A stretch of 64,000 nucleotides of DNA, taken from a virus. Lineage: Duplodnaviria > Caudoviricetes. This document shows, piece after piece, positions 9,139 to 12,336 of the stretch. The DNA is taken from positions 21,811 through 85,810 of IMG/VR virus record IMGVR_UViG_3300042523_000723; one strand, given 5' to 3'. The position numbers were made by a program, and so were the translations under genes. The notes beneath the pieces were generated by a model. That model searched no databases, had not been told where the DNA came from, and was given only the letters and a program-made list of their open reading frames with translations. How positions within the stretch are numbered: the stretch's first letter is position 1; every line of letters starts with the position of its first letter.

Positions 9139-11370
9139 TTAAGAGATTTTTATCACAATTTCTTCTTTTGCCTTAGAATAACTCACTTTAATAGTTTGAC
9201 CTTCTTCTACTCTACCACTTAAAATTTCTTCAGAGACAGGATCCTCAATATGTTTTTGTATTGCCCTATTCAATGGTCTTGCCCCATATTCTTCATCGTA
9301 TCCGACATCCACTAAATGATCTTTCGCAGTTTTATTTATTTGTAGTGTATAACCTATTTCAGATACCCTTTTCACTAATTTAACAATTTCTAAGTCAACA
9401 ATCTTACCGATTTGTTCCTTAGTTAATGATTTAAATATAATAACATCATCTAATCTATTTAGGAACTCAGGTGGAAATTGTTTTTTAAGTTCATCAGTTA
9501 ACATACTCTCTTTAATGTCATCTCGTTTCTCCAATTTAGATTTAGTACCAAAACCAACGCCCGTACCAAAGTCTCGTAGTTTCTTAACACCAACATTAGA
9601 TGTCATTATAACCATACAGTTTTTAAAGTTAACTTTTCTTCCTGACGAATCCGTTAAATGTCCATCATCTAATAATTGTAATAGGATATTGTATATTTCT
9701 TTATGTGCCTTTTCAATCTCATCAAATAGTACAATAGAATACGGTTTTCTCCTAACTTTCTCAGTGAGTTGCCCACCATCTTCATGTCCAACGTAACCCG
9801 GAGGAGAACCTATTAATCTAGAGATAGAATGTTTTTCCTGAAATTCAGACATATCTAATCTAATTAATGAATCTTCATCACCGAACATATGCTCCGCCAA
9901 TTTTTTCGCAATATGAGTTTTACCCACCCCACTATTTCCAATAAACATGAAAGTTCCTACTGGTTTTTTAGGGTTCCTGATCCCAACTCGATTTCTTCTT
10001 AATGATTTGGCAATCTTTTCTAACGCTACTTCTTGACCGATAACTTGTTTACCCATCTCTTTTTCCATCTCTAACATCCTCTTACCTTGATCACCACTAA
10101 TTCTTTTTAATGGTATTCCCGTCATAGATGCAACCACTTCATTAACGTCTTCAGGGGTTATTATTTTTTTATCTTTACTTAAACTATCTACCCACTTTAC
10201 CTTTTCACCATCCAACCTTTCGTTGATTATTCTCTCTTCGTCTCTTAATCTCGCCGCCTCTTCGTATTTTTGTTTCTTAACAACTTCACTCTTTTTATTT
10301 TTTAACTCTAAAATTTTATCTTCTAAATCATTAATTGCCTTTGGGACTTTAACGTTAATCTGACTTCTAGATCCAACCTCATCCATAATGTCAATCGCTT
10401 TATCGGGAAATTCTCTGTCTGTGATATATCTATCCGACATCTTAACACATTGTTCGATTGTCTCTGTTGGGTAAAATACTTTATGGTAAGTTTCATACGA
10501 ATCTTTAATTTTCATTAAGATTTTTATCGTATCTTCTACTGAAGGTGGGTCAATAATTACTTGTTGGAATCTTCTCGCTAAGGCACCATCCTTCTCTATA
10601 TTTTCTCTAAATTCATCTAATGTGGTTGCACCAATCAATTGTAAGTCACCTCTCGCCAACGCTGGTTTTAATACATTCGCAGCGTCCATAGATCCACTTG
10701 TGTTACCTGCACCTACTATAGTGTGAACTTCATCTATAAATAATATCACATTATCTACACCCATAAGTTCATCAACAACACCTTTAATCCTTTCTTCGAA
10801 CTGTCCTCTATATTTTGTACCCGCAACTAATGAAGTTAAGTCTAATGAAACAATTCTTTTATCTAACAACGTTCTAGGTGCGTCACCTTGTACAATTTTT
10901 AACGCCAACCCCTCTACTATTGTGGTTTTACCAGTATTATGACTAATTATCCCGTTCGAGACGTATCTATGGTTATTATCTTTAACCTCAAAATCATACG
11001 TATCATGAACCCCTATGTCCGTTTTAGATACAACCTCAACCATACCATCAATAGTGTTAACAAAATCACCAATTTCTACTAAACCTAATGGTAACCATGT
11101 AGCACCATCTAATTTCTTAACCCTACCATCCTCAATATCAACCATTAAATAGTGATCCTCAGATGCTTCCAAAAACATACCGTTAGATAATTCAACCCTA
11201 AAACATTTTTTATCTTTTTTAGTTATTAAAGAACCCAGACTACTAAAACCTTCATCAGTTTCTATTTGGTAGGTACCACCTTCGTCTTTTACCATGTTAA
11301 AGAAATCCGTAACTGACATCTCAACAACATCATCGATTTCCATACTTTTTTTATTTTCCTTTGTTTCCAT
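9139..11370 (-). CDS. clpC: split ClpC, C-terminal part: IntC (145 aa) followed by rest of AAA+1, UVR domain and AAA+2
   Basis: Intein ends SHN|TGKTT; AGTKYRGQFEER, LFIDEVH, RRFQ, GNSGVGKT, LFDEIEKAH, VGF loop, GARPL. Confidence 0.92.
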   Translation of the reverse strand: METKENKKSMEIDDVVEMSVTDFFNMVKDEGGTYQIETDEGFSSLGSLITKKDKKCFRVELSNGMFLEASEDHYLMVDIEDGRVKKLDGATWLPLGLVEIGDFVNTIDGMVEVVSKTDIGVHDTYDFEVKDNNHRYVSNGIISHNTGKTTIVEGLALKIVQGDAPRTLLDKRIVSLDLTSLVAGTKYRGQFEERIKGVVDELMGVDNVILFIDEVHTIVGAGNTSGSMDAANVLKPALARGDLQLIGATTLDEFRENIEKDGALARRFQQVIIDPPSVEDTIKILMKIKDSYETYHKVFYPTETIEQCVKMSDRYITDREFPDKAIDIMDEVGSRSQINVKVPKAINDLEDKILELKNKKSEVVKKQKYEEAARLRDEERIINERLDGEKVKWVDSLSKDKKIITPEDVNEVVASMTGIPLKRISGDQGKRMLEMEKEMGKQVIGQEVALEKIAKSLRRNRVGIRNPKKPVGTFMFIGNSGVGKTHIAKKLAEHMFGDEDSLIRLDMSEFQEKHSISRLIGSPPGYVGHEDGGQLTEKVRRKPYSIVLFDEIEKAHKEIYNILLQLLDDGHLTDSSGRKVNFKNCMVIMTSNVGVKKLRDFGTGVGFGTKSKLEKRDDIKESMLTDELKKQFPPEFLNRLDDVIIFKSLTKEQIGKIVDLEIVKLVKRVSEIGYTLQINKTAKDHLVDVGYDEEYGARPLNRAIQKHIEDPVSEEILSGRVEEGQTIKVSYSKAKEEIVIKIS
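10936..11370 (-). mobile_element. C-terminal fragment of split intein (IntC)
   Basis: Block B LEASEDH, block F TYDFEV, block G NGIISHN then +1 Thr; no block A. Confidence 0.88.
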
Positions 11371-11626
11371 ACTCTTTATTTAATTTTTTAATAATTTCAC
11401 TAACTGAGGTATCATAAATAACATTATAACCATTGTCTTTAAAAAAGACAATCTTATCACCCATTTTACGTGAATATTCGTCTAACATTTTATTATCAAC
11501 ATAACCAACATTTTTAATTAATCCAAAATATTCGATATATGTGTCGTATTTAGTAAGGTAGAAATCGTACCTATATTTTTTACCATCTGGGTACCACTCA
11601 TCATGTTTGAAGTCTATATTGATATG
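11351..11626 (-). pseudogene. 5'-truncated Vsr/DUF559-like (PD-(D/E)XK) endonuclease remnant
   Basis: Hand translation [35 protein letters not shown]...YSRKMGDKIVFFKDNGYNVI...; preceded by in-frame TGA with no ATG at the 5' end; stop overlaps the IntC start. Confidence 0.7.
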
Positions 11627-12336
11627 TCAGATATTTTCTTAACCTTGATTTTAGTATCACCTAATACACAACCCGGATCACCAATAATAATAGGATTATT
11701 CTTTTTCTTTCTCGCCAATATTTGGGCAACTCTTTGAATTGACTCGTCCCTACCAATTACCGGATCAATCTTACCTTCGGACGCTCTTTTAGTAACATCG
11801 ATAGAAAAATTATCTAATATAGGTGTTTCATTAGACTTACTACTTTTTAATTTATTTTTACTTTCTCTACTTTTATTTTCATCTTCATTTTCCATAGGTT
11901 CTATCGCACTTACAATGTTATCTTTATAATTTTTATAAGAAATCTTCGCACTTTTTAACATTGAGGACATATTAGTTTTTACTTTAAGTGTTGCCAAAAG
12001 AATGTGTTGGGTGTCCAAGTATTCATCGTTTAATTTATCACACTCTATTTCCGCACCCTTTAAAATGTTTTCTGTCATTTCTTCCAATGGGAAATCTTTA
12101 TTATTAATTTTCACATTATCATAATCCTCTTCTCTTAACAAAGACTTCTCTATAGTTTTATGTAAATTATCCACATCAACACCCATATTAATTAATGTCT
12201 TTATCGCATTATTATTATAGTCGTTTATTAATGATATTATTATATGTTCAATTCTAACCTCATAATCACCATAAAATTTCGCCTGTTTTATGGACATATT
12301 TATAATCCTCTTAACTTTAGGTAATACTTTTTTCAT
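11614..12336 (-). CDS. clpC: split ClpC, N-terminal part: Clp-N domain, start of AAA+1 and 18-aa IntN
   Basis: EHIIISL/QHILLA Clp-N repeats; [35 protein letters not shown]. Confidence 0.9.
11617..11670 (-). mobile_element. N-terminal fragment of split intein (IntN, 18 aa)
   Basis: [18 protein letters not shown] is intein block A inserted in Walker A. Confidence 0.85.

Follow-up and report, generated by a model that had tools for sequence, protein, structure and literature searches.

How might a phage make a ClpC-like ATPase from a gene that is broken inside its D1 Walker A motif? The question is raised by a 64,000-nucleotide (nt) stretch of viral DNA (Duplodnaviria; Caudoviricetes), positions 21,811 to 85,810 of IMG/VR record IMGVR_UViG_3300042523_000723, an 85.8-kb record with a CheckV completeness of 26%. 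In this whole stretch, hereafter the window, whose own numbering is used throughout, a clpC-like gene on the minus strand is divided between two open reading frames (ORFs), with the N-terminal (IntN) and C-terminal (IntC) fragments of a split intein flanking the break. An earlier note, made from the sequence alone, proposed that an 18-amino-acid (aa) IntN and a 145-aa IntC rebuild the protein by trans-splicing.

We propose that a mobile 'fractured gene' cassette occupies window 11670..10936 and precisely interrupts the D1 Walker A motif of a phage clpC-like gene. The intact cassette, as carried by the related metagenome loci L108 and L109, comprises a 24-aa IntN on the N-extein, a free-standing gene for a 391-aa endonuclease, and a 136-aa IntC on the C-extein. 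In the window a single 990-nt deletion has taken about 300 endonuclease codons, together with the spacer, the stop of the IntN ORF and its IntN codons 19-24; an IntN of 18 aa and an intact IntC are left, along with a dead remnant of the nuclease. ORF1 and ORF2 would be translated separately, the basic IntN strand would dock on IntC and complete the Hint fold, and Cys1 and Thr+1 would then trans-splice the exteins into an 820-aa ClpC carrying GDPGTGKT.

A split intein interrupts a ClpC-like gene

The features on which this account rests are listed below, with window positions.

12336..11614, minus strand: ORF1, 240 aa, the N-extein plus the 18-aa IntN, then TAG
11671..12336, minus strand: N-extein, the ClpC-like N-terminal part (Clp_N and linker), whose last residues are GDPG from the D1 Walker A motif; 222 aa, Pfam Clp_N with an expectation value (E) of 8.8e-12, 91% aa identity to L001, where the gene is uninterrupted
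11617..11670, minus strand: truncated IntN, 18 aa, corresponding to the first 18 of the 24 residues in undeleted copies
11618/11617, minus strand: deletion junction, with 990 nt missing that correspond to L108 384-1373 (blastn) and 2-3 nt of microhomology (ATA on both sides)
11614..11616, minus strand: TAG stop of the IntN ORF, created by the deletion from endonuclease-derived DNA read in the IntN frame
11351..11626, minus strand: start-less 3' endonuclease remnant, 91 codons plus stop in another frame than the intein, matching about residues 301-391 of the 391-aa L108 protein
11370..9139, minus strand: ORF2, 743 aa, starting METKENKKSMEIDDVVEMSVTDFF; IntC plus the C-extein
10936..11343, minus strand: IntC, 136 aa from the second Met (MEIDDVV...) or 145 aa if the start is at 11370; block B SEDH; ends SHN
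9139..10935, minus strand: C-extein from Thr+1 (TGKT...), with D1, a UVR-type middle region, D2 and D2-small (Pfam); 598 aa plus stop, 93% aa identity to L001

The two ORFs lie in one frame and are separated by a 243-nt gap with the in-frame stops TAG, TAA, TAG and TAA (read by eye), so that read-through cannot join them, as the earlier note had stated. Residues 1-145 of ORF2 end NGIISHN, residue 145 being Asn, and continue as TGKTTIVEGLALK (TGKT...). The ORF list thus bears out the description of a split intein within Walker A, carried by ORF 12336 and ORF 11370 with SHN preceding TGKT. Together the ORFs hold the complete domain set of a class I Clp/Hsp100 protein, comprising Clp_N, two AAA+ modules and the D2-small domain; Pfam recognises Clp_N on ORF1 and AAA, AAA_lid_9, UVR, AAA_2 and ClpB_D2-small on ORF2. 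Members of the clpC protein clusters carry the name 'ClpC' in their sources. We use 'ClpC-like' as the safe name because ORF2 alone, its score lowered by the split, misses the NCBIfam equivalog cut-offs for ClpB (730 bits vs 1232) and ClpA (639 vs 993).

A DNA alignment with the uninterrupted loci L001, L002 and L014 delimits the inserted block as window 11670..10936 (735 nt), lying between GGT and the +1 codon. The empty site in these loci reads GGT GTT GGT AAA (G-V-G-K), giving the protein sequence GDPGVGKT; the window has Thr in place of Val at +1 and would yield GDPG-T-GKT if spliced. Scanning viral contigs with ORF2 recovered 25 related viral loci at 41-93% identity, and the N- and C-extein matches are adjacent at the D1 site in all 25, three of which have inserts elsewhere, at the D2 Walker A motif. 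An 820-aa intein-less ClpC (P0153) also falls in the 90% cluster of ORF1.

Contigs from three sequencing runs of three studies (X1, X9 and X10, of which X1 may be the window's own source) span the stop and the junction with no indel, and over 3262 nt the window agrees at every position with a metagenome contig, L107 (100% identity). Assembly error, for which a check had been advised, is excluded by this agreement. That the split intein in clpC is a real cassette is, in our judgement, close to certain.

The 18-residue IntN is a deletion product

One metagenome scan located the same intein at three metagenome loci, L107, L108 and L109. Nucleotide identity to the window is 91% for L108 and 80% for L109, and the corresponding IntC aa identities are 98% and 95%. 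Both L108 and L109 carry the undeleted cassette, with a 24-aa IntN followed by a full endonuclease ORF and then IntC. The L108 IntN ends KKISDITIHNFIEK before its stop (ORF end ISDITIHNFIEK) and that of L109 ends KKISDISTHNFIEK (ORF end ISDISTHNFIEK); a 246-aa database protein from the 90% cluster of ORF1, P0160, ends ISDISIHNFIEK with a 24-aa IntN and is the closest undeleted form. The native IntN has 24 aa in L108, L109 and P0160 as well as in six of the seven other tails of our IntN alignment (A3), the remaining one, L040, having 26.

There is hardly room for doubt that the 18-aa IntN derives from the 24-aa form by deletion. Eighteen residues are therefore not the native, selected IntN length; they are a leftover of the 990-nt loss and no evolved design. 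The earlier note had also held that an IntN truncated by deletion would mark the gene as a pseudogene; the truncation is indeed found by comparison with L108, L109 and P0160, but truncation alone does not make a pseudogene.

Sister loci show other states of decay. At L030 (2990-3610) an in-frame deletion has re-fused IntN and IntC into a contiguous intein, with a 22-aa nuclease scrap left; L031 (3334-3507) keeps a 57-aa endonuclease remnant beside an intact 24-aa IntN; and L027 (3185-3500) has no endonuclease and a gap of only 7 nt.

The gap holds the end of an endonuclease gene

The space between the intein halves had been taken as mere separation, and the 91-codon remnant within it was overlooked. 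Far from being an empty spacer, the gap contains, in another frame, coding sequence for the 3' end of an endonuclease gene. That frame (11626..11351) has no start codon before Met47. Its product matches the 390-aa ORF that separates the two intein halves of L100 (BLASTP E = 4e-12, residues 4-82 against 308-386) and a 391-aa ORF of L092 (E = 1e-7), and is 96% identical to the L108 endonuclease (alignment A5). The remnant is dead, because the conserved first helix of the nuclease domain is missing. No intact free-standing copy of the gene is present in the window; it is intact in L108, L109 and L100.

Phage T7 endonuclease I (PDB 2pfj, 1m0d and 1fzr; E = 5e-5 for 2pfj) is matched by positions 287-385 of the endonuclease family profile (A5), a stretch in which the two share the FRSxxE, DF and E-containing motifs, and the PHROG family 9019, 'Holliday junction resolvase', matches as well (E = 3.7e-5). 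The resemblance is confined to the C-terminal domain: the cassette protein, at 391 aa, has about 280 additional N-terminal residues with repeated W..KGYS.EE modules, the Lys after the Glu motif is not conserved in the cassette family (IEYFG), and the window's 91 codons lack the FRSxxE-type helix. Neither Pfam nor NCBIfam has a family for the 391-aa endonuclease; searched alone, the remnant finds nothing in Pfam and weak PHROG matches, the best at E = 0.0025.

Free-standing members of this family, about 350-440 aa long, occur at L108:466-1638, L109:529-1701, L100:143-1312, L092:2300-3472, L101:2450-3508 and L064:2183-3493. In full, the repeated modules of their N-terminal half read W..KGYS.EE..(Q)TFSL.KCI, and similar modules occur in the unrelated, Vsr-like endonuclease of L025. 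We considered the L025 endonuclease as kin of the remnant and rejected it (BLASTP E = 0.11, not significant), the mismatch being explained by its different, DUF559/Vsr-like type. Between the halves of close intein relatives lies a second type, at L028:2626-3531 and also in L029, L032 and L040, which combines NUMOD3 with a nuclease domain that is TnsA-like and N-terminal (Pfam E = 1.4e-9 and 1.2e-8). At least three unrelated nuclease types are thus paired with a single intein family.

The intein belongs to a large family with VidaL as a relative

Judged by its sequence, the intein is a class 1, VidaL-like intein split after the first beta strands at an S1-type site, in keeping with the earlier placement of the split close to the N-terminus, in the D1 Walker A motif of a phage ClpC-like ATPase, with Cys1 and Thr+1. 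Cys1 directly follows GDPG, as in class 1 inteins, and its column is invariant in alignment A3. IntC has block B SEDH, of which S61 and H64 are invariant in alignment A2 (21 sequences), and ends HN before Thr+1 (ISHN then TGKT), with an NCBIfam TIGR01443 intein_Cterm score of 25.4 bits against a cut-off of 15.6. The Pfam Intein_splicing score of 21.1 bits is under the cut-off of 35.8. Among PDB sequences the VidaL intein (6vgv) is the best match to IntC (phmmer, E = 3.1e-6), other inteins matching more weakly. The predicted structure of the contiguous relative L030 (AlphaFold, mean predicted local distance difference test score 84.6) likewise has VidaL and other inteins as its top PDB matches. 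A profile of A3 run against PDB sequences matched only AAA+ exteins and did not cover the VidaL N-terminus.

A search of 1.84 billion representative proteins returned 178 IntC relatives at E <= 1e-3, 41 of them at E <= 1e-10. Among the best 150 of the 178, to which all statistics on position and junction refer, the IntC-like region is N-terminal in 70, internal in 37 and partial or otherwise placed in 43. The N-terminal relatives start at the aligned position of the window's second Met. No Shine-Dalgarno-like signal stood out by eye before ORF1 or either IntC start candidate, so we chose the IntC start from the family alignment; the native IntC most likely begins at 11343 and has 136 aa. The proposed 145-aa IntC holds in that residues 1-145 of ORF2 end at SHN, and most probably fails in its start.

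Of the 70 N-terminal relatives, 32 have Thr at +1, 20 have Ser and 18 have Cys, and in half of them (35) the junction is followed by [CST]GK[ST]. Both P-loop sites and Thr+1 are common in the family; as its most frequent +1 residue, Thr is not special. Related split inteins at the same D1 site of other ClpC-like genes are found in L027 and L100 and in the C-terminal ORFs P0010 and P0081; L027 has a 24-aa IntN, a 7-nt gap and no endonuclease. IntN has its own ORF in the loci L027-L032, L040 and L100, apart from the contiguous L030, and the split position is conserved.

Scanning viral contigs with alignment A2 gave at least 598 matching stretches, 248 of which encode a relative. A script classified the best 80 of these 248 loci as split with a recognisable IntN tail of 24-47 aa (49), split with no tail found (23) or contiguous (8), on the strength of a pattern that mislabelled at least L064, where the match is the tail of the endonuclease. 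With IntN and IntC on separate ORFs, 18 aa against 136 or 145 aa, the window's intein falls within the 15-37 aa reported for natural atypical IntN fragments (PMC13014065). The novelty of kind that had been suggested does not stand: such inteins are abundant and are known from VidaL, PolB16, AceL-TerL and 'fractured genes'.

The cassette has spread between clpC backgrounds

Synonymous divergence (dS) between the window and L108 is 0.41 in the N-extein and 0.67 in the C-extein, as against 0 in IntN, 0.056 in the endonuclease remnant and 0.052 in IntC; between the window and L109 it is 1.7-1.9 in the exteins and 0.10-0.15 in the cassette. As a whole the cassette is more than ten times less diverged than clpC. 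It is far younger than its host gene, a signature of horizontal spread. The ratio of nonsynonymous to synonymous divergence (dN/dS) is 0.14-0.18 for IntC and, in comparisons with L108, L109 and L001, 0.06-0.10 for the C-extein. Among 12 distinct 743-aa variants of ORF2, IntC differs at 0-6 of 145 residues, compared with 0-71 of 598 in the extein.

In the 90% cluster of ORF1 the truncated allele itself has eight representatives ending ISDISI, of which six are different 240-aa variants and two are shorter calls. All eight carry Ile216 (ATT, window 11689-11691, within NNPIIIG, seven residues before the splice site), a codon that specifies Val (GTT) in the intein-less forms (P0153, L001, L002 and L014) and in the forms with a 24-aa IntN. 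The presence of Ile216 in every copy points to a single origin of the truncated allele, for which it serves as a linked marker. Its N-exteins differ from one another at 0-18 of 222 residues in mosaic patterns that define at least six backgrounds. In run X9, an intein without differences is followed on one contig by a C-extein that departs from the window at 26 of 160 nt, almost exclusively at third codon positions, and a second contig spans the deletion junction. The exact ORF1 protein occurs on 10 contigs, and the truncated allele is present in several runs of different years.

The mosaic N-exteins and the divergent X9 C-extein indicate that the truncated cassette moved between backgrounds after losing its nuclease, a movement that may have proceeded by general recombination or through the nuclease of a sister cassette acting in trans. 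No fetched locus proved to be a good source of the divergent X9 C-extein, the closest sharing at most 13 of the 26 variant positions.

Does the truncated pair still splice?

On balance we favour the view that the truncated pair still splices well enough to supply functional ClpC. VidaL, the closest relative to have been characterised, splices with a 16-aa IntN at a half-time of about a minute (PMC13014065), and PolB16 works with one of 15 aa (PMC13014065; PMC10189870). VidaL also seems to have no counterpart of IntN residues 17-24, because residue 23 of its chain aligns with the sixth residue of the family IntC, a reading which takes the first residue of the chain to be intein residue 1 or its neighbour. 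The contiguous mini-intein relative P0021 passes from block A straight to the helix without the segment of IntN residues 17-24. Retained function would also be favoured by the persistence and spread of the truncated allele in a gene that is under purifying selection.

Several observations weigh against retained splicing. No IntN shorter than 24 aa is found among the 49 tails recognised by pattern in the best 80 of the 248 viral loci. The six residues lost of 24 include a His (position 19 or 20) that is present in six of the seven other A3 tails. In the L030 model, intein residues 7-14 and 21-24 form strands, so that structured residues are among those lost, and the loss of the predicted strand 21-24 could weaken association of the fragments. 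Moreover, copies that are 100% identical and a dS near 0 mark the allele as young, and intact ORFs are consequently no proof of function; frequent recombination could have brought it into its several backgrounds even if it is neutral or mildly harmful; and the purifying selection on IntC and the exteins is mostly older than the deletion.

The missing His and strand, the absence of shorter tails and the near identity of the copies, which leaves no time for decay, are equally what speaks for a recent inactivation, in which an 18-aa IntN is too short to associate or fold, the D1 Walker A motif stays broken, and clpC is a young, undecayed pseudogene or two useless fragments. Phage accessory genes, moreover, can be lost without death of the phage. 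We regard inactivation as a serious possibility, though clearly the less probable of the two. The gene is intact in all 25 related contigs, with a dN/dS of 0.06-0.13 in three pairs (L108, L109 and L001), and its loss should therefore cost fitness; the truncated allele has reached at least six N-extein variants, in runs of different years and with the exact protein on 10 contigs; the 16- and 15-aa IntN fragments of VidaL and PolB16 splice; and the part of IntN that makes up the minimal fold is kept, as the comparison with P0021 suggests. Outcomes other than retained splicing and a dead young pseudogene have, taken together, only a small share of our confidence.

One such outcome, which we think very improbable, is that the intein pieces hold the ClpC halves together non-covalently as a partly active ATPase. 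Split-intein fragments generally bind tightly, as exemplified by AceL NrdHF with a dissociation constant of 82 nM (PMC7891396). All catalytic residues are present, so that this outcome would need a subtle defect. Against it, there is no sign of lost catalysis in the sequence, and a P-loop broken into GDPG and TGKT by a wedged-in 150-residue domain would be hard to fit with nucleotide binding by D1. The shared frame of the ORFs might further suggest an assembly or sequencing error, or read-through or frameshifting that joins the halves into a contiguous intein protein. We give this practically no credence: four in-frame stops intervene, the DNA of the gap has its homology to an endonuclease gene in a different frame, read-through is impossible in relatives whose halves are separated by an intact endonuclease gene, the contigs of X1, X9 and X10 agree with L107, and no Rfam family was found in window 10700-12450. 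The suggestion that splicing might act as a post-translational switch on ClpC gained no support from any result.

Comparison with known split inteins and fractured genes

VidaL (PDB 6vgv), a Cys-dependent, naturally and atypically split intein, is the best solved relative of the window's IntC by sequence and the best structural match of the L030 model (Foldseek E = 2.5e-9, template modelling score 0.85 on the target). It is likewise split after the first beta strands, at an S1-type site (PMC13014065), and it appears to sit before a GK motif, since the crystallised chain ends SH-A-SGK. The differences are considerable: identity in the structural alignment is about 21%, the host gene is another one, and the VidaL IntN has 16 aa, whereas the native IntN of the window's family has 24 with an extra strand. 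The window in addition has Thr+1, and its 18-aa IntN is a deletion product.

A short IntN is likewise combined with a long IntC in other natural split inteins from phage-like metagenome DNA, PolB16 OarG (IntN of 15 aa), AceL-TerL (25 aa) and GOS-TerL (37 aa), which demonstrate that an IntN of 15-37 aa can be functional (PMC10189870; PMC13014065). Their exteins are a polymerase and terminases, PolB16 is a Ser/Ser intein, and AceL and GOS are split after helix 1 (S2). None of the three matched IntC significantly in the PDB sequence search, and PolB16 ranked 49th in the fold search.

The organization of L108, L109 and L100 is that of the 'fractured genes' of Dassa, London, Stoddard, Schueler-Furman and Pietrokovski (2009, PMC2677866), with an ORF for N-extein and IntN, a free-standing endonuclease ORF and an ORF for IntC and C-extein on one strand of phage-like DNA. 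In all three loci the end of the endonuclease ORF adjoins or overlaps the IntC start. The hosts described in PMC2677866 are DNA synthesis and repair enzymes, the endonucleases are of GIY-YIG or Vsr-like type, and all loci but one break at the canonical endonuclease-insertion site; its main text contains neither 'Clp' nor 'ATPase'. The endonuclease of the window's type differs in resembling T7 endonuclease I, and in the window its gene is reduced to a remnant. A literature search gave no intein-focused paper mentioning ClpC or ClpB among its best matches. Particular to the window are the ClpC-type host and the natural truncation of IntN together with a decayed nuclease.

Some related clpC genes are interrupted at other or additional positions. 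In L100 (1-2823) the gene is fractured twice, into at least three pieces: the D1 Walker A motif is interrupted by a 24-aa IntN, the 390-aa endonuclease and IntC, and the next ORF ends GVGK plus a 31-aa IntN-like tail at the D2 Walker A motif. In L025 (1908-6429) clpC is intact at D1 and fractured at the D2 Walker A motif, with a 35-aa IntN, a 501-aa endonuclease (weak DUF559; PHROG 22677) and an IntC 30% identical to the window's. In L021 (2320-5826) and L022 the D2 Walker A motif is interrupted by a contiguous insert, about 342 aa long (GVGK, then C...HN, then T), whose motifs, by eye, resemble those of a LAGLIDADG-type nested endonuclease.

Other features of the locus

The D2 module contains GTGVGFG (window 9500-9560, ORF2 residues about 606-612). 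A VGF loop is the motif by which ClpC docks to ClpP, and its putative occurrence here would fit an unfoldase feeding host ClpP. Adjoining clpC on the plus strand, at window 12397-13320, is a divergent 307-aa ORF with a counterpart in the same position in L021 (1334..2260); from a motif recognised by eye it is presumably a DNA methyltransferase. A promoter and terminator scan of window 9000-12500 gave 20 promoter-like sites where 18.5 were expected. RNA runs X17-X20 contain 9-15% of the sampled words.

Implications

The clpC locus leaves the understanding of how split inteins work unchanged. For protein engineering, it points to a large family of hundreds of loci, many with an IntN of 24-37 aa, at P-loop and other sites, with VidaL as a distant characterised member; the natural 18-aa truncation is ready for comparison with its 24-aa parent. 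We speculate, tentatively, that the 735-nt block is a non-autonomous derivative that has lost its nuclease and a quarter of IntN, still trans-splices with 18 residues, and relies on co-infection, in which the endonuclease of intact sister cassettes copies it into empty clpC alleles. If so, the block would be comparable to a miniature transposable element in its dependence on a full-length parent, and would amount to a natural truncation experiment showing that IntN residues 19-24 are dispensable in this family. Closely related lake phages display three allelic states at this locus, namely an empty site, a full 'fractured gene' cassette and a nuclease-less deletion derivative, and the locus thereby provides direct population-level evidence for the gain-and-decay cycle that has been proposed for such elements.

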